Assembly (NCBI GenBank): GCA_016187395.1
Contig: JACPJV010000009.1
Coordinates: forward strand, 1 to 63,114
Length of the DNA stretch: 63,114 nucleotides
Source of the DNA: Candidatus Aenigmatarchaeota archaeon
Lineage (GTDB): Archaea > Aenigmatarchaeota > Aenigmatarchaeia > GW2011-AR5 > JACRAC01
Reading direction: 5' to 3'
In this document: in pieces, positions 6,515 to 56,600 of the stretch
Layout: each line of letters begins with the position of its first letter
Numbering within the stretch: position 1 is the first letter of the stretch
Made by a program: the position numbers and the translations under genes
The notes under the pieces: generated by a model
What the model was told of the DNA's origin: nothing
What the model saw: the letters and a program-made list of their open reading frames with translations, nothing else
Database searches by the model: none

Positions 6515-6758
6515 ATATAGTGAAGCAAATAAATAAACCCGATATGATCATTTGCTTCCCATACAAGGAGGAACGAAGTTCCTCCTGTACAGCAGAAGCT
6601 TCGCTTCTGCTTGTAGAGTGAACCAAGATTTTTAGTCGGCATTGGTTTCTTGGTTCACTTTATAGTGAAACCACAAATGAAACGGAACATGTATTTGTGC
6701 TTTCCCATATAGCAAACCAACTCTGGTATGCCGTTTATTTAGTTGGTTTGCTATAAAC
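6515..6758. repeat. hairpin-array repeat element (six consecutive stem-loops)
   Basis: ATATAG-hp-CATACAAG-hp(GAGGAAC/GTTCCTC)-CTGTACAG-hp(CAGAAGC/GCTTCTG)-CTTGTAG-hp-TTATAG-hp-CATATAG-hp-CTATAAAC. It fills the gap between convergent genes. Confidence 0.75.
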
Positions 6759-7353: not shown

Positions 7354-9525
7354 ATGGCAAAGGATAAAACAGAATTAGTGAAAGAGCTGATGGAACAGCC
7401 GGAGAAGATACGTAATATCGGAATCGCTGCGCACATCGACCATGGAAAAACCACGCTTTCAGACAGCCTGATAGCAGGCGCCGGCATGATTTCAGAGGAG
7501 CTGGCTGGAAAGCAGCTGTTCATGGACTTCACAAAGCAGGAACAGGAACGCGGAATCACTATATGGGCGGCTAATGCAAGCATGGTTCATGATTATGAAA
7601 ATGGGAATTACCTGATAAACCTCATAGACACACCGGGGCATGTGGATTTTTCCGGCGATGTCACCAGGGCAATGAGGGCAGTTGACGGAGTTATAATCCT
7701 TGTTGACGCAGTCGAGAGCGTGATGCCGCAGACAGAAACGGTAATAAGGCAGGCACTGCGCGAGCGCGTTAAGCCAGTCTTGTTTATAAACAAGGTAGAC
7801 AGGCTTATCCGCGAGCTAAAGTTCACGCCAGAGCAGATGCAGAAGCGGTTTGAAAAAATCATCTCTGACGTAAACAGGCTTATCATAAAATATGCAGAGA
7901 AAGAGTTCGCAGAAAAGTGGATAGTGAAGGTGGACGACGGTTCTGTCGCATTCGGGTCAGGCTATCGAAAATGGGCGATATCGGTTCCTGCCATGAAAAA
8001 AATGCAGATAAGCTTCAAGGACATCATAACCTATACGCAGGAAGACAGGGAAAGGGAACTGTCCAAAAAAGCGCCTGTTCACCAGATTTTGCTGAACATG
8101 GTTATCAAGCATTTGCCTAACCCGCTGGATGCGCAGAAATACAGGATTCCAAAGATATGGAAAGGCGATTTAGAATCAGGCATAGGCAAGGATATGCTTT
8201 CCATGAATTCGAAAGGGGTGCTGGCAGGCGTTGTGACCAAGGTATTGCCGGATCCGCATGCAGGAATTGTGGCTACAGCAAGGCTCTTTTCAGGCGCGAT
8301 ATCCCGCGGACAGGAGGTGCGCCTTATAGGACAACACATGACAAGGCGTATACAGCAGGTGGCGATATACAAGGGCCCGCAAAGAGAACAGATGGAAACC
8401 ATATTTGCAGGCAACATAGTGGCAATAACAGGGATACCGGAGGCATATTCAGGAGAGACTATATGCGACCCAAGCATAGAAATGCACCCTTTCGAGGCGA
8501 TAAAGCATATATTCGAGCCTGTAGTCACGAAGAGCGTAGAGCCGAAAAGCCCACAGGACTTGCAAAAGATCATAAATTTCCTGCGCCAGGTTAGCAGGGA
8601 AGACCCGATGCTGGAAATTAACATCAACGAGGAAACAGGCGAGTATCTTGTTTCTGGACTAGGCGAATTGCATATAAACGCAAAGGTAGAAAGGCCGCTT
8701 TCTGAGATGGGCATAGAAATCAAGGTGTCACCACCCATTGTCGTTTACAGGGAGACGGTGGGCGGAAGAGGCCCTGTTGCAGAGGGAGTAAGCTCAAACA
8801 GGCATAACAGGTTCTATCTAAGCGTGGAACCTCTGGAGCCTGCAGTTTTAGAGGCTATAAACGAGGGCAAGATATCAACAGAGAACGTGAAAAAGAACGT
8901 AAAGGAGGTTACAAAGCAGCTCGTAGATTACGGCATGCCGAGGGATGAGGCAAAGAATATAGTCGACATCTACAACAAAAACGTCCTCGTCGATGCAACA
9001 AAAGGAATACAGTACCTTCATGAAACGATTGAGCTTATCACAGAGGCGTTCAGGAACACGGTGAAAAAGGGTCCGCAGTCAAACGAGCCATGCGTTGGGT
9101 TGAAAGTGCTTGTAAATGACGCAAAGCTGCACGAAGATGCGATACACAGAGGACCTGCGCAGGTGCTTCCAGCTGTGAGCGACTCCATCAGGCAGAGCAT
9201 GATGAGGGCAAAGCCCCTGATACTTGAACCTATCCAGGTAATACGCATAGACGTGCCTGAGGAGATCATGGGCGCAGCTATTTCGCAGGTGCAGAACAGG
9301 AGGGGGCAGGTTATTAACATGGAAACAGACCTGGGAACTTCCATGATAACTGCAAAGATGCCTGTTTCAGAAATGTTCGGGTTTGAGGCGCAATTAAAAA
9401 GCGCAACAGGCGGAAAAGGATTCTACTCGCTGATAGACGTGAAGTTTGAAAAGCTGCCGGGAGAGCTGCAACAAAATGTCATAAGCAAAATCAGGCAGAG
9501 GAAAGGACTGGCAGAGGGGCAGTAG
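7354..9525 (+). CDS. fusA: translation elongation factor aEF-2
   Basis: AHIDHGKTTLSD G1 motif, DTPGH, NKVDR, and the diphthamide-region HEDAIHRGPAQ. 723 aa. Confidence 0.97.
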   Translation: MAKDKTELVKELMEQPEKIRNIGIAAHIDHGKTTLSDSLIAGAGMISEELAGKQLFMDFTKQEQERGITIWAANASMVHDYENGNYLINLIDTPGHVDFSGDVTRAMRAVDGVIILVDAVESVMPQTETVIRQALRERVKPVLFINKVDRLIRELKFTPEQMQKRFEKIISDVNRLIIKYAEKEFAEKWIVKVDDGSVAFGSGYRKWAISVPAMKKMQISFKDIITYTQEDRERELSKKAPVHQILLNMVIKHLPNPLDAQKYRIPKIWKGDLESGIGKDMLSMNSKGVLAGVVTKVLPDPHAGIVATARLFSGAISRGQEVRLIGQHMTRRIQQVAIYKGPQREQMETIFAGNIVAITGIPEAYSGETICDPSIEMHPFEAIKHIFEPVVTKSVEPKSPQDLQKIINFLRQVSREDPMLEININEETGEYLVSGLGELHINAKVERPLSEMGIEIKVSPPIVVYRETVGGRGPVAEGVSSNRHNRFYLSVEPLEPAVLEAINEGKISTENVKKNVKEVTKQLVDYGMPRDEAKNIVDIYNKNVLVDATKGIQYLHETIELITEAFRNTVKKGPQSNEPCVGLKVLVNDAKLHEDAIHRGPAQVLPAVSDSIRQSMMRAKPLILEPIQVIRIDVPEEIMGAAISQVQNRRGQVINMETDLGTSMITAKMPVSEMFGFEAQLKSATGGKGFYSLIDVKFEKLPGELQQNVISKIRQRKGLAEGQ
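9487..9525 (+). repeat. direct repeat copy 1 (authentic aEF-2 3' end)
   Basis: The last 12 codons plus stop (KIRQRKGLAEGQ*) recur at 10060-10098 with 34/39 identity. Confidence 0.9.
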
Positions 9526-9568
9526 AAGTGCGAAGGATAAACACCGAAGAAGTGAACCGGTGATTTTC

Positions 9569-9823
9569 ATGCCTTACGAAATTATCGTGAAAGAGCCTGC
9601 AGAAAGGAAGCTGAGAAAATTCCCGAAGGATATACAGCGCAGATTTGCAAAACGCGCGGAAAAGCTGGCGGAAAACCCGCATTCATTCGGCAAGCCTTTG
9701 AGGAATGTTCTGGCAGGCTATTGGGAAGATTACTTCGAAAGAAGATTCCGCATAATTTATACTATTGACGAAAATTCAAAAACTATTACTATAGAAGCCA
9801 TAAAGCACAAGGATGAATTCTAG
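9569..9823 (+). CDS. RelE/ParE-family toxin
   Basis: AERKLRKFPKDIQRRFAKRAEKLAENP...RFRIIYTIDENSKTITIEAIKHKDEF. GGTGA lies before ATG 9569. The track start is GTG 9560. Confidence 0.7.
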   Translation: MPYEIIVKEPAERKLRKFPKDIQRRFAKRAEKLAENPHSFGKPLRNVLAGYWEDYFERRFRIIYTIDENSKTITIEAIKHKDEF

Positions 9824-10005
9824 AGCCCGAGCTCTTTCCTCACTTCTTTCCAAGGTCTGCCCTTGGAAGTTTTGGATTCCTTGATTTGTTCCATAAGTTC
9901 CTTATCACCCAGAATTTCTATAGTTCTCTGCATACTCTCGTACTCGTCTTTGGAAATAACAACATAGCTAGTTTCATGCCTACCTTTTTCCATCAGCACA
10001 GACAT
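9820..10005 (-). CDS. Phd/YefM-family antitoxin
   Basis: VVISKDEYESMQRTIEILGDKELMEQIKES is a typical Phd/YefM core. GGTGA SD and a TTTAAAT box lie upstream on the minus strand. Confidence 0.7.
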   Translation of the reverse strand: MSVLMEKGRHETSYVVISKDEYESMQRTIEILGDKELMEQIKESKTSKGRPWKEVRKELGL

Positions 10006-10059
10006 GGCATCACCGAACTAATAAATAGGCAAACTGATTTAAATTGATTTGTATCCCGA

Positions 10060-10098
10060 AAAATCAGGCAGAGGAAGGGGCTGGCAGAAGGACAGTAA
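10060..10098 (+). repeat. direct repeat copy 2 (orphan aEF-2 3' end)
   Basis: Encodes the identical KIRQRKGLAEGQ* peptide. All 5 differences from 9487-9525 are synonymous, including TAG to TAA. Confidence 0.9.
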
Positions 10099-10174
10099 CT
10101 TTAGTATTCTTCGGCATTTAGATATCTTTGAAGGAAAGGCTTAATTTATTGCTGTTTTTGAAGAAAAGCCAACG

Positions 10175-10184
10175 TTTAAATATA
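10175..10184 (+). promoter_or_regulatory. TATA-box candidate for aEF-1alpha
   Basis: TTTAAATATA about 35 nt upstream of ATG 10219. An AGGTG SD lies 6 nt before the ATG. Confidence 0.4.
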
Positions 10185-10218
10185 TTACTATCATACGTTT
10201 GTGAGTGAAGGTGTAAAT

Positions 10219-11484
10219 ATGGCAGCAAAACCTCACATGAACCTTGTGACAATAGGGCACGTAGACCACGGCAAGTCTACACTAGTAGGCAGGCTGCTCT
10301 ACGACAGCGGCAACTTTCCTGAAACAGAATTGAGAAAACTAAAGGAGCTGGCAAAGGAACTTGGAAAGGAAACATTTGAATTTGCATTTATAATGGACCG
10401 TGCAAAGGAAGAAAGAGAGAGAGGAGTCACCATAGACGTAATGCACCAGAGATTTGACACTAAAAGATATTACTTCACGATCATAGACGCGCCCGGCCAC
10501 AGGGACTTTGTCAAGAACATGATTACCGGTGCAAGCCAGGCAGACGGCGCTATCCTGGTCGTGTCTGCAAAGGACGGTGTGCAGGAGCAGACGAAGGAGC
10601 ATATATGGCTATCAAAAATTTTCGGCATAAAGCAGCTTATTGTTGCGCTGTCCAAAATGGACGAGGTAGGATGGGAAGAGGCAAGGTACAAGGAAACCAA
10701 GGAATCTGTGACAAAGCAATTGAAGGGAGCTGGTTTTGATGTAAGCAAGATAAAATGTGTCCCTGTTTCTGCCTATGAAGGAGACAACCTCGTGAAGAAG
10801 AGCGATAACATGAAATGGTACAACGGCCCGACGCTTGTTGAGGCACTGGATGATTTCGAAGTGCCGCCACAACCGGTTGACAAGCCACTAAGACTGCCTA
10901 TTCAGGACGTCTATTCAATCACAGGCGTTGGCACGGTGCCTGTGGGCAGGGTCGAGACTGGAGTTATGAAGGTCGGAGACAAGATAATTTTCATGCCTTC
11001 AAAGGCTCTTGGCGAAGTGAAGACGATAGAGATGCATCACGAGCAGATACAGGAGGCAAGGCCCGGCGACAATGTAGGCTTTTCTGTGAGAGGAGTGGAC
11101 AAGAAGCAGATAAAGCGGGGCGATGTTGTTAGTCACGCTGACAAGCCGGCGAAGGTAGTCAAAGAATTTACAGCACAGATTCTTGTGCTAAATCACCCGA
11201 GCGTGATAAGCAAAGGCTATACGCCCGTATTCCACGCGCACACAGCGCAGGTTGCGTGCACTATAATTGATATCGTAAAGCAGATAGACCCGAAGACAGG
11301 CGCTGCCGTGAAGGAGCATCCGGATTTCATAAAAACAGGCGATGCTGCTATTGTCAAAGTAAAGCCGACAAAGCCTTTTATCATAGAAGCCCAAAAAGAA
11401 TTCCCTGAGATGGCAAAATTTGCAATCCGCGACATGGGACAGACCGTGGCGGCAGGAATATGCCTGGAGACCGTGACAGAATGA
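10219..11484 (+). CDS. tuf: translation elongation factor aEF-1alpha
   Basis: [24 protein letters not shown] and SKMD motifs. The track ORF begins at GTG 10201, but the SD supports ATG 10219. Confidence 0.97.
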
Positions 11485-11873
11485 GGAATCCTTGCAAGAA
11501 AATGAATTCTTATAATTTTCATTCTAAAATTCCTTATGCCTTCAGGACATCAATACCAGACTGTCCGCAATCTGTTGACGCCACGGCAGATGGCAAATCT
11601 GTTTTTGCGGCTGGAAAGGTCAGATGAGTTCTTAGTAGAGGGTGGCGATAATCCTCCAAGACTGCCCTGCCACGTTTATGTGAAAGGCGCAAATGTCTGC
11701 GTGGGCTATTTAGGGGACGATTCTGCTGAAATCGTTGACAGTCACAGGAGAGATACGCGTGCCCGTAGAAGAAATCTGAGAAGAATTTTCTATTCTGTCT
11801 GAACTTCTGGCAACTGAAAATCGAGGGGCTATTCTACAGCAATCTTTATTTGGAGTTTTTCAAGAGAATATGC

Positions 11874-14631: not shown

Positions 14632-15882
14632 TTACTTCCGGGTGAGCGCGCGTATTAAGTCTCTGTCAGATATTCCCATCGAGGCCAACTTTCTTTTTGC
14701 CTCCTCATAAACCAGTTTTCTTCTTCTCTCAAATTCTTCGTCTATCTTTACCGCCGTAGCGCGTTCAAAGACAGACAGAAGAAGGCTTTCATCAGCAGGC
14801 TCTGGATGAGGATCTGCAAGGGCTGCTTCGAACAGCTTGCAGCATCTTTCTAAAACTCCAACGGCTTCAGGATATTCACTCTTTTTAATTGGATCCGAAC
14901 TCTTGAAGGCTACGTCAAAATATCCTGAGAAGCGCTTTCTGTCGTAATCAAGCCTTCTTTCTGCCATTTCCACGGCATACGCAACCCATAGGGGCATATT
15001 GTAAAGCGCGGATGCAAAAGATCGGGCAGATTCATGGATTTTTCTTTCATCTTCTGATTCCACGGTTGACGTATGATCAACCCTGCTTATTGCGATTTTT
15101 CCACTCCCTACGTGCGCTATTACGTGGTTTTGCCCAAGAAACGAATCCGGATGCATGACCAGTCTGGAGTCAGCAAGAGCTCTGCATTCAAATGCATGCC
15201 ATTGCAAAAGCGACTCGTAAAGTCTGCAAATACATTCTTTTATTTCTCTTAGCTCTTCCGGAGATGCGTGCTGCAGGTGCCTGCGCATCAGAACTTCAAA
15301 CTCATCCTGCCTGAGGTCACTCTCAATATCCGGCAGCTGAAGCACTTCGGAGTATAAAGGCTCGTTTTGCCATGTCAGAAACGGATATTCTATTGCGCCT
15401 GCGAACCTGCATGGCGAGGCCAATCCTAATTTCGAGTAGGCTTCTCCTAAAATTTCAAATGCCCTGCGGGAATTCCGAATATTTTCACGGGTAAGAAAAT
15501 TCCACGGCCTTCCATCCCTGTATCCAGGAAACGGAACGCAGAGCAGTTTGGAATGCAAAAGCCGCTCAACTGCCTGCGCATCCGGCACAGACTCTGCAGA
15601 ATGATCAACGTCCCGTATGATATTTTTTTCTGAGGCTGAGACTGTCCGTGTTATCACTCCTTTGGGATCTGCCCCTTTGATTCTATAAACTTCGCCATTT
15701 TCTTCTGTCAAAATCCCTCTTCCGCCGGAATTGTAGCAGTTCATATCTCCGTCTTCTGATGCAAAAAGAGGGAGCCTTTCAGATAGCCACGGGGGCATTT
15801 CTCCGGTTGTAGCATGCGGAGTAGCGTAGGTTTTCACAGGGACCTCTACCCGCACACTTTCCAGTATGCTTTTGTATGCCAT
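14632..15882 (-). CDS. hypothetical protein, possibly protein-kinase/APH-like fold
   Basis: HPDSFLGQNHVI (H-x-D..N) and ISRVDHTS (DxG-like) are spaced as in kinase-like catalytic loops. ATG 15882 sits ~23 nt downstream of a TTTAATAATTA box. The track ORF extends to 15918. Confidence 0.5.
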   Translation of the reverse strand: MAYKSILESVRVEVPVKTYATPHATTGEMPPWLSERLPLFASEDGDMNCYNSGGRGILTEENGEVYRIKGADPKGVITRTVSASEKNIIRDVDHSAESVPDAQAVERLLHSKLLCVPFPGYRDGRPWNFLTRENIRNSRRAFEILGEAYSKLGLASPCRFAGAIEYPFLTWQNEPLYSEVLQLPDIESDLRQDEFEVLMRRHLQHASPEELREIKECICRLYESLLQWHAFECRALADSRLVMHPDSFLGQNHVIAHVGSGKIAISRVDHTSTVESEDERKIHESARSFASALYNMPLWVAYAVEMAERRLDYDRKRFSGYFDVAFKSSDPIKKSEYPEAVGVLERCCKLFEAALADPHPEPADESLLLSVFERATAVKIDEEFERRRKLVYEEAKRKLASMGISDRDLIRALTRK

Positions 15883-15914
15883 AGAGTAAGGCCGGAGAAT
15901 AATTATTAAAGCAT

Positions 15915-15941
15915 TCATCCAGTCAGTTCAATTTCGATATC
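15915..15941 (-). repeat. orphan copy of the uS10 gene 3' end
   Basis: On the minus strand it encodes DIEIELTG*, versus NIEIELTG* at the real rps10 end (16490-16516). 22 of the first 26 nt are identical. Confidence 0.75.
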
Positions 15942-20554: not shown

Positions 20555-20704
20555 TGTGAAACAAGGAAATAATACCGACATGTCCTTGTTTCACATTATA
20601 CAAGCAGAACCATTCGGGTTCTGCTGTACAGCAGGAGCTCTGCTCCTGCTTGTAGTGCACAAGGAATTATCATATCCCGATTTATTCCTTGTAGCACTAT
20701 AAAA
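20555..20704. repeat. hairpin-array repeat element, copy related to 45177-45325
   Basis: 13-bp perfect stem TGTGAAACAAGGA/TCCTTGTTTCACA, then TACAAG-CAGAACC/GGTTCTG-CTGTACAG-CAGGAGC/GCTCCTG-CTTGTAG, then stem TGCACAAGGA/TCCTTGTAGCA and CTATAAAA. It starts 4 nt after a stop codon. Confidence 0.85.
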
Positions 20705-23339: not shown

Positions 23340-23939
23340 ATGGATATAGAACAACTAGGCAATTCCACCTCTGTTATAAGATTTGACGGCTGGCATTTTG
23401 CGCCTGTTGCAAGGAAAATTAAGGAAATTTTGCGCGAACGTCCTGACGCGGCTTTGCAATACGGTGATATTGTGATGGCGAGACTTGAAGCTGAAGAGCT
23501 GGATGTTGGCGAATTCGAGATAGGCACGAGATTTGGAGAGGGCCTGGCACTTGTAAATCTAGAATCAGGAGAGAGCGTTGTTTCACCTTCTGAAGGACAG
23601 ATGGATATCAGGAGGTACAGTGCGCAATTTGCACGGAAATACAAATGGAGCGATGTAAATTTCCGCGTTCTGGTTCCCGAAAGAAAGGGCATGATATATG
23701 TTGCTCATGATATTCCTGGAAGAAGCGATAGGACGTTTGTTCAATGGGCATATCACGCTCACGGTAGAGAGGCAGAAGAGATTCTCTCGGACGCAGAGTA
23801 CGGAATGTTTCAAGTATCGGGTAAACCTGTCCTTAATCTTGCCAATCTTATAAGAGGGGAACGCGCCTTTCTTATGGGAGAAGTGCTTATTGGGGCGACC
23901 GGTATTTACAGAGAGATTCCTAGAGGAAAATCTATCTAA
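23340..23939 (+). CDS. ORFan, paralog A of the pair flanking aIF2-gamma
   Basis: Shares LDVGEFEIGT, RRYSAQFARKY, RVLVPE..G.IYV, DIPGRSD..FVQW and YREIPRG blocks with 25396..25974. Confidence 0.6.
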   Translation: MDIEQLGNSTSVIRFDGWHFAPVARKIKEILRERPDAALQYGDIVMARLEAEELDVGEFEIGTRFGEGLALVNLESGESVVSPSEGQMDIRRYSAQFARKYKWSDVNFRVLVPERKGMIYVAHDIPGRSDRTFVQWAYHAHGREAEEILSDAEYGMFQVSGKPVLNLANLIRGERAFLMGEVLIGATGIYREIPRGKSI

Positions 23940-24118: not shown

Positions 24119-25348
24119 GTGATTATTTTCACAAAGGAAGAGAAGGGAGGGAGGACTGAAGTAAGCATAGGCGTTGTGGGTCACGTAGACCATGGAAAGA
24201 CTACGCTTGTGAAAGCATTAACAGGCAAATGGACTTCCACATACAGCGAAGAATTAAAAAGAGGGATCACAATCAGGCTAGGCTATGCTGACGCGAAATT
24301 TTATTATTGCGAGAAAGACAATTCATATTGTCCAACTCAGAAATGCAGCAAATGCTTTGGTGATGCTAAATTTGCAAGGGCAGTGTCGTTTGTGGATGCA
24401 CCCGGGCATGAGACGCTGATGGCGACGGTACTGAGCGGCGCAGCGCTAATGGACGGCGCGCTGCTGATTATATCTGCGACTGAAAAATGTCCCAGACCGC
24501 AAACGGCTGAACACTTAAAGGCGCTGGAGATTGCGGGCATAGGCAAGATCGTGATCGTGCAAAATAAAATAGATGCTGTTGATGAAAAAAGGGCAAGGGA
24601 AAGTTGCAGGGAGATAAAGGATTTTGTGAAAGGATCCATAGCTGATAATTCACCAATAATCCCTGTATCAGCATTGCACAATGCGAACATAGACATACTC
24701 ATAGAGACGATAGAAAAAGTAATCGAAACACCGGAGCGGAGCCTGAATGATGATTCTGTATTCTATGCGGCACGATCATTTGACGTGAACAAGCCCGGGA
24801 CAGACATTGAAAAGCTCAAGGGAGGCGTTATAGGAGGGGCGCTTTCCAAAGGGAGCATAGAGAAAGGGTCTGAGATAGAAATAGCCCCCGGCTTTAATGA
24901 GAATGGCGTATTCAAAAAACTAAAAACAAAAGTAGTGGGCATAGTGCAGGCGGATTTGCCTCAGGAAAAGGCATATCCAGGCGGACTGGTTGCACTGGAA
25001 ACATCTTTGGACCCGAGCCTGACAAGAGGCGATGTTCTGGCAGGAAATCTTGCAGGGCTTCCTGGAAAGCTGCCTGAATGCAAATTTGTGGTAAAATTCA
25101 AGCCAAACCTTTTTGACTATGTCATAGGCGTGGGCGGGCAGACAGTTGTAAGCCCGATAAAAACAGGCGACGCCCTTCTTGTAACACATGCGGTTGAAAA
25201 AAGCGTGGGCGCGGTCACGTCAGGCTCTGAAAAAGGCGTGGAATTAAAATTAAAGATACCGCTGTGCGTGCAGAAAGGGGATAAAATTGCACTATCAAGG
25301 CAGTCTGGCGGACGCTGGCATCTGATAGGATGGGGGGAGATAGTGTAG
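24119..25348 (+). CDS. eif2g: translation initiation factor aIF2 gamma subunit
   Basis: GVVGHVDHGKTTLVKALTG, the Cys-knuckle CEKDNSYCPTQKCSKC, DAPGHE and QNKID. Confidence 0.95.
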   Translation: MIIFTKEEKGGRTEVSIGVVGHVDHGKTTLVKALTGKWTSTYSEELKRGITIRLGYADAKFYYCEKDNSYCPTQKCSKCFGDAKFARAVSFVDAPGHETLMATVLSGAALMDGALLIISATEKCPRPQTAEHLKALEIAGIGKIVIVQNKIDAVDEKRARESCREIKDFVKGSIADNSPIIPVSALHNANIDILIETIEKVIETPERSLNDDSVFYAARSFDVNKPGTDIEKLKGGVIGGALSKGSIEKGSEIEIAPGFNENGVFKKLKTKVVGIVQADLPQEKAYPGGLVALETSLDPSLTRGDVLAGNLAGLPGKLPECKFVVKFKPNLFDYVIGVGGQTVVSPIKTGDALLVTHAVEKSVGAVTSGSEKGVELKLKIPLCVQKGDKIALSRQSGGRWHLIGWGEIV

Positions 25349-25395: not shown

Positions 25396-25974
25396 ATGCT
25401 ATCAAACCAAGCTAGTGTTGTGAGTCTGGATGAACTGGAGTTAAAGCCCTATATAGTAATTGGGCGAAAGCTTGTGCATGGAGCGCCTAGACTAGCCTTT
25501 GTATTAGGAAAGCTTGTTCTGGTTGGAATTAGAGGCGAAAGGCTGGATGTTGGCGAATTTGAAACAGGCACGATGGAAAGAGAGGTAGAAATAGCAAGAC
25601 GAACTCGGGGAGAAGATTATTTAATGGATGTTTCATATGGACAACCTGTTGTAAGAAGACATAGAGCACGATACGCAAGAAGGTATATGGATGGATTTGA
25701 TGATGAAACTAGGGTACTGGTTCCACAAGACGATGGTCGGATATATGTTGTGCAGAATATACCACGCAGGCCTGACCATTTCGTGCAATGGGATGATTAT
25801 TCCCATGATCCTGAAAAGGAAAGGGTTCTTGACAGTGCTGATTGCGCGATATTTCTAGCGACTAATGCTTCTATAATGCCTTTGGTCGCACTTGTAGGCA
25901 AATCTCACGCCTTGTTTTTGCATAGGGGTTCAGGTTCAGGTGGAAGTTACAGAGAGCTTAATAGGAGAAACTAA
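25396..25974 (+). CDS. ORFan, paralog B of the pair flanking aIF2-gamma
   Basis: LDVGEFETGT, RRHRARYARRY, RVLVPQDDGRIYV, NIPRRPDHFVQW and YRELNRR align with 23340..23939. Confidence 0.6.
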   Translation: MLSNQASVVSLDELELKPYIVIGRKLVHGAPRLAFVLGKLVLVGIRGERLDVGEFETGTMEREVEIARRTRGEDYLMDVSYGQPVVRRHRARYARRYMDGFDDETRVLVPQDDGRIYVVQNIPRRPDHFVQWDDYSHDPEKERVLDSADCAIFLATNASIMPLVALVGKSHALFLHRGSGSGGSYRELNRRN

Positions 25975-28068: not shown

Positions 28069-28104
28069 AACCTCCTGCATAACCTCCCCTTTCAGGAGCT
28101 TTCT
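28069..28104. repeat. perfect 36-bp direct repeat, distal copy
   Basis: AACCTCCTGCATAACCTCCCCTTTCAGGAGCTTTCT is identical to 28812-28847. Confidence 0.95.
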
Positions 28105-28158: not shown

Positions 28159-28386
28159 ATGACGAACATGACTCTGGCAGTTCCTGAAGACCTGAAAGAG
28201 GCGATGGACAGGCACAAGGAAGTCAGGTGGAGCGAGATAGCAAGGCAGGCGATGTGGGAGCATGCACGAAAGCTAGAACTGATGGACAAGCTTCTTGCAA
28301 AGAGCAGGCTGACCGAGAAAGACGCAGAGGAATTGGGCCATAAAATAAAGCATGGAATTGCAAGGAGACACGGGCTGGTAAAATGA
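28159..28386 (+). CDS. VapB-like antitoxin
   Basis: MTLAVPEDLKEAMDRHKEVRWSEIARQA pattern. 4-nt ATGA overlap with the PIN gene. Confidence 0.6.
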   Translation: MTNMTLAVPEDLKEAMDRHKEVRWSEIARQAMWEHARKLELMDKLLAKSRLTEKDAEELGHKIKHGIARRHGLVK

Positions 28387-28805
28387 AAATCGTGGTGGAT
28401 ACGAACAGAATAATAGCAGCTTTAGTCAAAGACAGCACAACGCGGGAAATCCTGTTCGACAGAAATTTTGAGTTTGTAACACCAGACCATACTATAAAGG
28501 AAGTATACGAGCATAAAGACGAATTGAAGGTCAAAACAAATCTCAGCAATGAAGAATTTGACATCCTCATGGCATTTATTTTCGAGCGCATTGAGATTAT
28601 CCCAGAATCAGATTACAGGGATTTTATGGAAGAATGCAGGAATGATATAAGTGATCCGGATGATGTGCCGATTCTTGCTGCGGCTGTCGCCATCAAAACC
28701 GATGGCATATGGGCGCATGACCCTCATTTCAGAGAACAAAACAAGATAAAGGTATTTACGAATATAGACATGCTGAGATTCAGTGGCCGAATGAAATCAG
28801 GTTGA
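28383..28805 (+). CDS. PIN-domain toxin
   Basis: KIVVDTNRIIAAL ... DPDDVPILAAAVA ... DGIWAHDPHF, the acidic residues of the PIN fold. Confidence 0.75.
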   Translation: MKIVVDTNRIIAALVKDSTTREILFDRNFEFVTPDHTIKEVYEHKDELKVKTNLSNEEFDILMAFIFERIEIIPESDYRDFMEECRNDISDPDDVPILAAAVAIKTDGIWAHDPHFREQNKIKVFTNIDMLRFSGRMKSG

Positions 28806-29105
28806 TTACTTAACCTCCTGCATAACCTCCCCTTTCAGGAGCTTTCTCTGGAGGCCCAGGATGAGAAGCTCTGCATCATTATCGCTATAGCCCAACTTTT
28901 TCAGGATCTTTATTCCTTCCGGCAATATTTTGGCGGATACGTTCTTCGACAGCTGGGGATCAAAGGAGAAGAAAGTGGCTTCGAAAGGTATTTTTTCCTC
29001 CAGTTGCATTTCACCGCGCATGGTTATGACGTTGTTTCCATAAGGCGCGAAGCCCTTGACGTAAACGGCGAAATCAGGGACAGGCATGATATCAGCTGAA
29101 ATCAT
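28806..29105 (-). CDS. hypothetical protein whose 3' end is the cassette target
   Basis: 99-aa ORF. Its last 14 codons include repeat copy 28812-28847. Confidence 0.5.
   Translation of the reverse strand: MISADIMPVPDFAVYVKGFAPYGNNVITMRGEMQLEEKIPFEATFFSFDPQLSKNVSAKILPEGIKILKKLGYSDNDAELLILGLQRKLLKGEVMQEVK
28812..28847. repeat. perfect 36-bp direct repeat, gene-proximal copy
   Basis: Identical to 28069-28104. On the minus strand it encodes RKLLKGEVMQEV of ORF 28806..29105. Confidence 0.95.
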
Positions 29106-29984: not shown

Positions 29985-30188
29985 CCACCGCCTACAATGC
30001 GAATCGAAGATTCGCATGTACAGAAGGAATCTTTGATTCCTTCTTGTAAAGGCGGTGGTTTCACAAGGTCTTCAGCACAAGGAGAAGCGAGCTTCTCCTG
30101 TGCAGGAGGAACTTCGTTCCTCCTTGCATGCCAAAGAAGTTCGGTATCTTATCCTCTGCCTAAAGGCAGAGGGTTTAGAACTTCTTTG
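29985..30188. repeat. hairpin-array repeat element between rnp3 and rnp2
   Basis: CCACCGCC-TACAA-hp-TGTACAG-hp-CTTGTA-aa-GGCGGTGG, then CACAAG-hp-CTGTGCAG-hp-CTTGCA, then nested CAAAGAAGTT[CGGTATCTTAT CCTCTGCC taaa GGCAGAGG]AACTTCTTTG. Confidence 0.7.
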
Positions 30189-45176: not shown

Positions 45177-45325
45177 TTTATAGTGCTACAAGGAATAAAT
45201 CGGGATATAATAATTCCTTGTGCACTACAAGCAGGAGCAGAGCTCCTGCTGTACAGCAGAACTCGGAGAGTTCTGCCTGTATACTGTGAAACAAGGATAT
45301 GCCGGTATTATTTCCTCGTTTCACA
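45177..45325. repeat. hairpin-array repeat element, inverted copy of 20555-20704
   Basis: The reverse complement aligns almost base for base with 20555-20704. The CAGAACC/GGTTCTG arm is replaced by CAGAACTC/GAGTTCTG. It abuts the ALDH stop codon. Confidence 0.85.
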
Positions 45326-56534: not shown

Positions 56535-56600
56535 TGTGAGCAGGAGCAAAGCTCCTGCTACACAGCAAGAGCTTCGCTCTTGCTTGTGCCGCAGCACAAG
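56535..56600. repeat. triple-hairpin repeat module inside the operon
   Basis: TGTGAGCAGGAGC aaa GCTCCTGCT(A)CACA, GCAAGAGC ttcg CTCTTGC and TTGTGC cgca GCACAA. Same stem types as the other loci. Confidence 0.55.

Follow-up and report, generated by a model that had tools for sequence, protein, structure and literature searches.

The window analysed here is the whole of a stretch of 63,114 nucleotides (nt) from a genome of Candidatus Aenigmatarchaeota (assembly GCA_016187395.1, contig JACPJV010000009.1), a DPANN phylum without genetics. It contains the gene of archaeal elongation factor 2 (aEF-2, fusA) and, farther along the same strand, the gene of elongation factor 1alpha (aEF-1alpha, tuf), and between these two translation genes lie a toxin gene, an antitoxin gene and a second, orphan copy of the aEF-2 gene end. 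This toxin-antitoxin (TA) cassette, bounded on either side by a copy of the coding end of the neighbouring gene, is the subject of the present analysis. The movement of chromosomal TA pairs between genomes is largely unexplained, and in the aEF-2 cassette the scars of such an event are unusually legible. The features of the locus are the following (coordinates of the window; aa, amino acids).

7354..9525, + strand: aEF-2 (fusA) gene, intact, 723 aa (Pfam GTP_EFTU, EFG_III, EFG_IV and EFG_C)
9487..9525, + strand: first, attL-like copy, the translated gene end KIRQRKGLAEGQ with TAG, followed by cassette DNA lacking the native spacer motif
9487..9503, + strand: 17-nt run common to both copies, AAAATCAGGCAGAGGAA, the codons of the conserved KIRQRK motif
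9526..10059, no strand: insert of 534 nt between the copies, G+C 0.39-0.42 against 0.46-0.52 in fusA and tuf
9569..9823, + strand: RelE/ParE-superfamily toxin gene, 84 aa, co-directional with fusA, with a GGTGA ribosome-binding site
9820..10005, - strand: putative YefM/RelB-type (Phd/YefM-like) antitoxin gene, 61 codons, convergent with the toxin gene
10006..10059, - strand: predicted antitoxin promoter region with TATA-like boxes and a GGTGA ribosome-binding site, conserved among cassette copies
10060..10098, + strand: second, attR-like copy, an untranslated orphan aEF-2 end with TAA, contiguous with the native spacer
10117..10138, + strand: native fusA-tuf spacer motif TTTAGATATCTTTGAAGGAAAG, 19 nt after the second copy
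10219..11484, + strand: aEF-1alpha (tuf) gene (Pfam), its start kept in relatives

Two copies of the aEF-2 gene end

The first copy (AAAATCAGGCAGAGGAAAGGACTGGCAGAGGGGCAGTAG) comprises the last 12 codons of aEF-2 and the stop codon, and the second (AAAATCAGGCAGAGGAAGGGGCTGGCAGAAGGACAGTAA) agrees with it at 34 of the 39 positions, the first 17 nt showing no difference. The remaining five differences (AAA/AAG, GGA/GGG, GAG/GAA, GGG/GGA and TAG/TAA) are all silent, that is, both copies read KIRQRKGLAEGQ followed by a stop codon. Neither a second match to the 39-mer in shuffled windows nor a third copy in the window itself was found. The second copy is not translatable: an in-frame TGA stands five codons upstream and there is no start codon. 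The initial annotation, which had been made from the letters of the window and had described this repeat as well as the untranslated state of its downstream copy, proved exact in all of these particulars when the sequence was recounted against the codon table.

The silence of the differences is informative. For five random substitutions in the 39-mer the probability of all being silent is P = 6e-4, and P = 0.01 is obtained when the coding copy is restricted to silent changes while the orphan drifts freely. Because silent-only differences are so improbable, the copies do not seem to have arisen by drift after a simple target duplication, and the proposal that they had separate coding histories before being joined is upheld. 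Judged from their letters, they look like a mosaic, composed of an identical crossover or conversion tract and of a part that comes from two alleles heavily diverged at silent sites, both of which had been translated.

The question of which copy is native is answered by the DNA that follows. The motif TTTAGATATCTTTGAAGGAAAG is unique in the window, did not occur in 100 shuffles, and among 162 fetched loci (designated by L numbers) is present only in the fusA-tuf spacers of L072, L073 and L078, apart from L060, which is the window itself; the DNA after the first copy lacks it. Since the spacer motif of the relatives follows the second copy only, the 3' part of the second copy together with its downstream DNA is taken as the resident gene end, and the 3' 22 nt of the first copy were probably imported along with the cassette. 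The attL/attR-like hybrid ends that had been proposed for the locus are thus borne out by the position of the motif, and also by two further cases of the same architecture, described below. The insert and one gene-end copy together make 573 nt, and after their removal the fusA-tuf spacer measures 120 nt, as against 140-238 nt in the insert-free and more distantly related L002, L072, L073 and L078, each of which has a single tail copy. The codons of the closest relative were also tried for recognizing the native copy and were uninformative, the silent sites being saturated, so the spacer motif was used instead.

The spacer motif itself recurs in the clade as TTTARATA(0-8 nt)TCTTTGAARGAAAG shortly past the aEF-2 stop codon (window, 10117-10138; L072, 5991-6018; L073, 6020-6047; L078, 6097-6124). 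In the relatives it belongs to an inverted repeat (GATTACT...AGTAATC), and its role between fusA and tuf may be that of a promoter, an operator or a terminator.

All of the best matches to aEF-2 come from Candidatus Aenigmatarchaeota, with identities of up to 72% in species-representative genomes (over the C-terminal third) and 81% over the full length in a collection of 5.8 billion proteins, where P0001 is the closest. When the aEF-2, tuf, toxin and winged helix-turn-helix genes of the window were looked up by exact match, only the window's own Logan contig or nothing was returned. Among 120 aEF-2 homologues KIR(E/Q)RKG is nearly invariant and the tail after RKG is hypervariable, the tail LAEGQ being common only to the closest relative P0001. 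Because the second copy encodes this lineage-specific peptide, both copies would come from a narrow clade and the donor would be a close relative. The statement of the initial annotation that fusA and tuf are usually adjacent holds for the closest relatives, at the spacings given above; of the Aenigmatarchaeota loci examined, however, only about half have the two genes side by side. Long fusA-tuf gaps in L001, L007, L008, L009, L012, L014, L076 and L081 were considered as further insertions and rejected, as they contain ordinary genes such as those of a DEAD-box helicase, an amidophosphoribosyltransferase-like protein and a HAD hydrolase, which is gene-order variation.

Two other observations concern the same gene and spacer. 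In the closest relative (L061, 6031-6684, an ENA ANAN16 scaffold) the fusA-tuf spacer contains two minus-strand open reading frames (ORFs) of 61 and 58 aa without family match, and two copies of a hairpin GAATTTCTTTTC..GAAAAGAAATTC just past the aEF-2 stop codon; there is no tail duplicate, and the spacer is a variable spot in the clade. In addition, the Aenigmatarchaeota aEF-2 homologues P0065, P0074, P0089, P0090, P0103, P0106 and P0112 measure about 1190-1257 aa and contain two additional Pfam families, PF14528 and PF14890, which we take to be LAGLIDADG and intein-splicing domains; if so, aEF-2 is invaded by inteins in part of the phylum and harbors a second kind of selfish element.

The toxin and antitoxin genes of the insert

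The initial annotation had assigned a RelE-like and a Phd-like gene to the 534 nt between the copies. Both genes are present, but they do not form an operon: they are convergent and their stop codons overlap (CTAG). The toxin matches PF05016 of Pfam with 35.2 bits (cut-off 23; E 1.8e-8) and, in the PDB, RelE (9g12_A, E 1.4e-6) and Rv2866 (3g5o_B, E 2e-5). The antitoxin belongs to a family of 13 members of 59-72 aa, and a profile of this family matches the antitoxin chains 8yxv_B (E 0.0037), 9g12_C (RelB, E 0.019) and 3g5o_A (Rv2865, E 0.028). These matches are weak (E 0.004-0.03) and cover C-terminal halves only, and the complexes concerned are those matched by the toxin; against PF02604 the antitoxin gave E 0.008 and 16.3 bits, below the cut-off of 29.8. 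Because the profile meets the antitoxin chains over their C-terminal halves only, the 61-aa protein would thus be a YefM/RelB-type antitoxin without roughly the first 35 residues, that is, an N-terminally minimal form. We take these approximately 35 residues to be the DNA-binding and dimerisation part. Accordingly, the pair resembles type II TA systems such as Rv2865-Rv2866 of Mycobacterium tuberculosis (PDB 3g5o) and RelBE (PDB 9g12), of which toxin and antitoxin each match the corresponding chains, whereas it departs from RelBE/YefM-YoeB-type systems in the shortened antitoxin as well as in the convergent arrangement of its genes.

Whether the same cassette exists elsewhere had been raised together with the initial annotation, and it does. 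A convergent pair with overlapping or abutting stop codons is found in at least five other genomic contexts (L063-L070 and L144-L152; the convergent layout was seen in L063, L065-L069, L070, L145-L149 and L152), and the antitoxin gene is strictly linked to the toxin gene wherever adjoining DNA is included. Because the same pair sits in so many contexts, it moves as a unit. The convergent layout is retained across these contexts and is unusual for type II systems. In L063, L065 and L070 the homologous cassette DNA begins about 30 nt upstream of the antitoxin start and ends about 15 nt past the toxin start. The stretch upstream of the antitoxin gene probably acts as its promoter, with TATA-like boxes CTATTTATTA at 10028-10019 and ATTTAAAT at 10044-10037. 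For the toxin gene no conserved promoter was found within the cassette, and in every context with upstream sequence this gene lies downstream of a co-directional host gene, and for these two reasons the toxin of the present locus is likely to be read through from fusA. Neither Rfam families nor RNA structure were found in the region.

Further cases and known kinds of element

A scan for gene-tail duplicates at the peptide level, covering 1.09 Mb (the window and about 160 loci), gave only three cassettes in addition to repeats in an array in L152. The first is the aEF-2 cassette of the window. The second lies in another Aenigmatarchaeota genome (L011, JAZDJX010000053.1, 4928-6136), where the aEF-2 end ITKIRERKGMSKEFRV with its stop codon recurs 1158 nt downstream. 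This repeat is 51 nt long and has seven differences, again all silent (P 1e-5 to 1e-3), which are clustered (6/7 versus 1/9, Fisher 0.009), the identical tract being on the 3' side. The cargo consists of a 143-aa gene without family match and a gene of a 206-aa MNT-like nucleotidyltransferase, with a promoter of their own that includes an operator-like direct repeat; the slack around the genes is 63 and about 8 nt, a similar amount being found in the third cassette, and tuf is not downstream of fusA. Both aEF-2 repeats, that of the window and that of L011, begin within 6 nt of the same conserved KIR(Q/E)RKG codons. L011 was the only tail duplicate at fusA among the 132 loci obtained by one genome scan and one metagenome scan for more such cases.

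The third cassette is in the window and contains vapBC.

28069..28104, - strand: orphan gene-tail copy, reading RKLLKGEVMQEV and then TGA, one half of a perfect 36-nt direct repeat
28159..28805, + strand: vapB-like gene (28159-28386) and PIN-domain vapC gene (28383-28805), a VapBC operon between the 36-nt copies
28806..29105, - strand: host gene of the cassette, 93-99 aa as called, ending in RKLLKGEVMQEV, K and a stop codon, with its 36-nt copy at 28812-28847

The vapC product matches PIN_2 (PF10130, E 1.4e-20), and that of vapB matches VapB_Sulfo (NF050799, E 9e-4, below the cut-off). The host gene ends in VK and a stop codon and the orphan in V and a stop codon. The repeat covers the last 12 codons but one, and no other short-range direct repeat of the window is as strong. 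In the host-gene orthologues P0135 and P0136 the tail region is kept and the downstream neighbours differ (CorA, or an unrelated 140-aa gene), for which reason no clean comparison with an empty site could be made for this cassette. A sequence motif common to the aEF-2 repeat and the 36-nt repeat was sought by eye, and only a GAAAGG(G)-like heptamer derived from K-G codons was seen, which is too short. Three cases, with two host genes, three unrelated types of TA system and two genomes, suggest a general route in Aenigmatarchaeota.

An integron-like array containing a relative of the RelE/ParE pair occurs at the end of a 121-kb contig (L152, 1-6201; JGI Ga0129287_10000020). It comprises HepT/MNT, a convergent Phd-like/ParE pair, a PIN pair, a 72-aa gene and a Fic gene, with recurring repeats of about 40-130 nt between the units; some of these repeats overlap the ends of ORFs. 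The 6 kb fetched contain no integrase.

Comparison with known mobile elements begins with the casposons, since the initial annotation had named the aEF-2 3' end as an integration site of thaumarchaeal casposons. This is correct: family 1 casposons of Thaumarchaeota do insert into the 3'-distal part of this gene (PMC4046053, PMC4779613, PMC6563490), and they share with the cassette the same gene and the same end of it, the intactness of the gene and the direct repeats around the insert. However, the link to the present cassette is not sustained. The scan for recombinases and Cas1 covered the insert and the 40 ORFs of at least 150 aa in the window (among them a 428-aa ORF, 14632-15918, without family match), in none of which Cas1, PolB or a transposase was found, and 534 nt are too small for PolB. 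The best terminal inverted repeat of the insert is a match of 7 nt, equalled in 56 of 200 shuffles, which is chance level. Most casposon target duplications are of 13-14 nt (PMC8464041, PMC4779613), that of family 1 being 13 bp with the target ATTGATAAAGAGT (PMC8464041), which is unrelated to the 39-nt aEF-2 repeat. Consequently, a casposon was rejected: the insert lacks Cas1, PolB and terminal inverted repeats, its repeat is of 39 nt with silent-only differences and its host is a DPANN archaeon, not a thaumarchaeon; its position in the last 39 nt of aEF-2 does agree with the family 1 target region.

With integrated elements of the integrase type the cassette shares the direct repeats, of which one overlaps a gene end, and the restoration of this gene end by element-borne sequence, with TAG in place of the native TAA; it lacks a gene of its own for a tyrosine or serine recombinase. 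The repeats, at 36-51 nt, fall inside the range of crenarchaeal att sites, 29-69 bp (PMC6563490). Archaeal integrated elements such as NitEve-E2 of Nitrososphaera are documented to reconstitute an ORF with a new stop codon (PMC6563490); like the cassette, they lie inside a gene end, supply a stop codon other than the original one when the frame is restored, and have direct repeats on both sides. Elements of the NitEve-E2 type differ from the cassette in encoding a tyrosine integrase, in being kilobases long and in their short att sites, the median of thaumarchaeal ones being 17 bp (PMC6563490).

The closest named concept is that of the bacterial cis-mobilizable elements (CIMEs). In streptococci these are att-flanked islands without recombinase at the 3' ends of fda, rpsI, rpmG and rplL, 1.2-13 kb in size, with microCIMEs of 130-220 bp (PMC7563491). 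Like them, the cassette has att-like flanks which include the 3' end of a housekeeping gene, carries cargo only, without genes for recombination and transfer, and is of a size within their range. In contrast to them, its host is a DPANN archaeon, no integrase-bearing partner was found for the site in about 30 related loci, a small sample, or in viral contigs, its cargo is a TA pair alone, its repeats are diverged alleles of a coding tail instead of identical att cores, and there is no sign of a larger ancestor. An integron gene cassette was rejected on the grounds that there is neither an attC-like site nor, in the window, an integron integrase, and that the repeats are gene tails. Integron TA cassettes and the ParE/ParD module of Microcystis, flanked by 152-bp direct repeats (PMC7935541), are similarly compact, promoter-bearing and mobile TA pairs bounded by repeats; unlike intergenic or cassette-borne sites, the repeats in the window are the coding end of the neighbouring gene. 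Gene-end integration with frame restoration, recombinase-less att-flanked elements and mobile TA cassettes are already known, whereas limited searches of the literature found no account of a minimal TA-only unit with silent-only diverged gene-end copies that recurs in a DPANN phylum, nor of the conserved convergent layout of the pair, nor of its truncated antitoxin.

Possible origin of the cassette

The explanation preferred here, held with moderate confidence, is that a non-autonomous mobile unit of 573 nt, consisting of the convergent TA pair and an aEF-2 end, has entered the resident aEF-2 gene by recombination within its last 39 nt and produced attL/attR-like ends. The incoming DNA would have borne its own aEF-2 tail, the product of coding evolution in a related lineage that also has LAEGQ, and the donor cassette had presumably sat behind aEF-2. 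Exchange within AAAATCAGGCAGAGGAA, the KIRQRK codons, would give two products: a translated hybrid end, made of the resident 5' part, the imported 3' part and a new TAG, and an untranslated orphan, made of the resident 3' part with TAA and joined to the native fusA-tuf spacer. The protein sequence of aEF-2 is unchanged. The exchange could be the work of a tyrosine integrase supplied in trans, as for bacterial CIMEs, or equally of the homologous recombination of the host, with the gene end as a portable homology arm. After insertion the toxin would be supplied by read-through from the fusA promoter and the antitoxin by its own convergent promoter, and addiction would stabilise the insert.

Several points weigh against this explanation. 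The travel of a 0.57-kb unit between cells is left without explanation by it. Neither the insert nor the 40 window ORFs scanned gave an integrase of any kind, no integrase-bearing element lies downstream of fusA in about 30 related loci, and viral contigs gave no free or viral copy with the tail mimic or the toxin. Around the other copies of the RelE/ParE cassette (L063, L065, L070, L144 and L145) no flanking repeats were found, and for this reason tail duplication does not seem obligatory for its movement. The one-sidedness of the differences between the two copies (0/5 left codons versus 5/8 right codons), which fits a crossover or conversion tract, is only marginally significant (Fisher two-sided 0.075). 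Furthermore, the empty site envisaged in the initial annotation, with fusA followed directly by tuf and a single tail copy, was not found for the same species in the databases searched, in which the closest aEF-2 is the 81% identical P0001; more distant relatives have a single tail copy together with the spacer motif.

A possible but unlikely origin is the decay of a larger integrase-bearing element, a provirus or a plasmid, of which deletions have left the TA pair and the att sites, so that the cassette would be a CIME by descent. Att-flanked remnants without a recombinase occur commonly at the 3' ends of bacterial housekeeping genes (PMC7563491), archaeal integrated elements do target the 3'-distal parts of protein genes (PMC6563490), and a TA pair would resist deletion. 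However, only about 97 nt of the insert are non-coding, there are no pseudogene fragments, the L011 and vapBC cassettes are equally compact, the RelE/ParE pair is the same compact unit elsewhere, and the approximately 30 related fusA loci offer no integrase-bearing element. Because there are three compact cassettes, two unrelated host genes and no recombinase, we lean to a non-autonomous cassette rather than to a decayed large element. Quite unlikely is homology-facilitated illegitimate recombination or allelic transfer, by which a cassette-bearing fragment of a relative replaced the 3' region of fusA through one crossover in fusA and another join in or just before the resident tail, the latter being left as a relic. 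It accounts for the silent-only differences and for the identical tract next to the diverged one without an att-specific enzyme; moreover, the highly conserved fusA is a long homology arm, and, gene order past fusA being variable in the phylum, the orphan tail may have been the sole homology on the right-hand side. Against this, random joins predict relics of widely varying length, while both aEF-2 cases start within 6 nt of the same KIR(Q/E)RKG codons and vapBC again has a 36-nt tail, and the original event that made a tail-flanked cassette in the donor is still needed.

A duplication of the target site, by a transposase or a casposase-like enzyme cutting in a staggered manner about 36-51 nt apart, followed by divergence, is very unlikely. 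In its favour, the 3' end of aEF-2 is known to be targeted by casposons, a duplication of 35 nt is on record for one of them (PMC4779613), the family 1 casposase can integrate substrates without terminal inverted repeats in vitro (PMC8464041) and the vapBC repeat is perfect. The silent-only differences, however, are improbable under drift both in the window and in L011 at the P values given above, and with the chance-level inverted repeats, the missing enzymes and the unrelated family 1 target little is left to this explanation. Finally, an artefact of assembly by a chimeric join, or a second copy that is a conserved functional element unrelated to insertion, is scarcely credible. The window is evidently a metagenome contig, but an independent Logan assembly of run SRR12113424 (L060, 2378 nt), which spans both junctions, agrees with window positions 9286-11663 at 100% identity, and a chimeric join through the repeat is unlikely because the longest identical run is of 17 nt, which is shorter than the k-mers usual in assembly. 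As to a functional element, the approximately 30 related loci contain no second copy, apart from L011 with its own cassette.

A broader proposal can be made tentatively. DPANN archaea may carry an undescribed class of minimal recombinase-less TA cassettes, in which a copy of the host gene end serves as a portable landing pad for the homologous recombination of the host and allows a homing-like spread behind essential genes whose protein is left unaltered; the pair described here would then be a new convergent type II form, with a promoterless toxin fed by the host gene and an antitoxin without its DNA-binding half. The silent-only copies would mean that the cassette travelled with the coding gene end of another lineage into an essential translation gene and left it unchanged. 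Should the insertion need no dedicated recombinase, landing on conserved gene ends would offer selfish cassettes a simple and testable route, and the CIME concept would be extended to archaea. The convergent layout and the truncated antitoxin would enlarge the known forms of type II systems to a small but real extent, and in genome annotation orphan copies of gene tails may serve as a cheap marker of recent insertions.

Two sets of repeated sequences elsewhere in the window may be added. Palindromic elements of about 35-55 nt (e.g., CAGCAGAAGCTTCGCTTCTGCTTG) are present at 6562-6616, 20621-20655, 29993-30129, 45226-45261 and 56535-56589, and could be elements similar to repetitive extragenic palindromes (REP-like), to miniature inverted-repeat transposable elements (MITE-like) or to terminators; in L004 a similar hairpin-containing 39-mer is found on both sides of fusA (3-41 and 2724-2762). 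In addition, the aIF2-gamma gene (24119-25348) is flanked by two paralogous genes without Pfam match (23340-23939, 199 aa, and 25396-25974, 192 aa), which have a stretch of about 60 nt in common (23470-23529 and 25514-25573).

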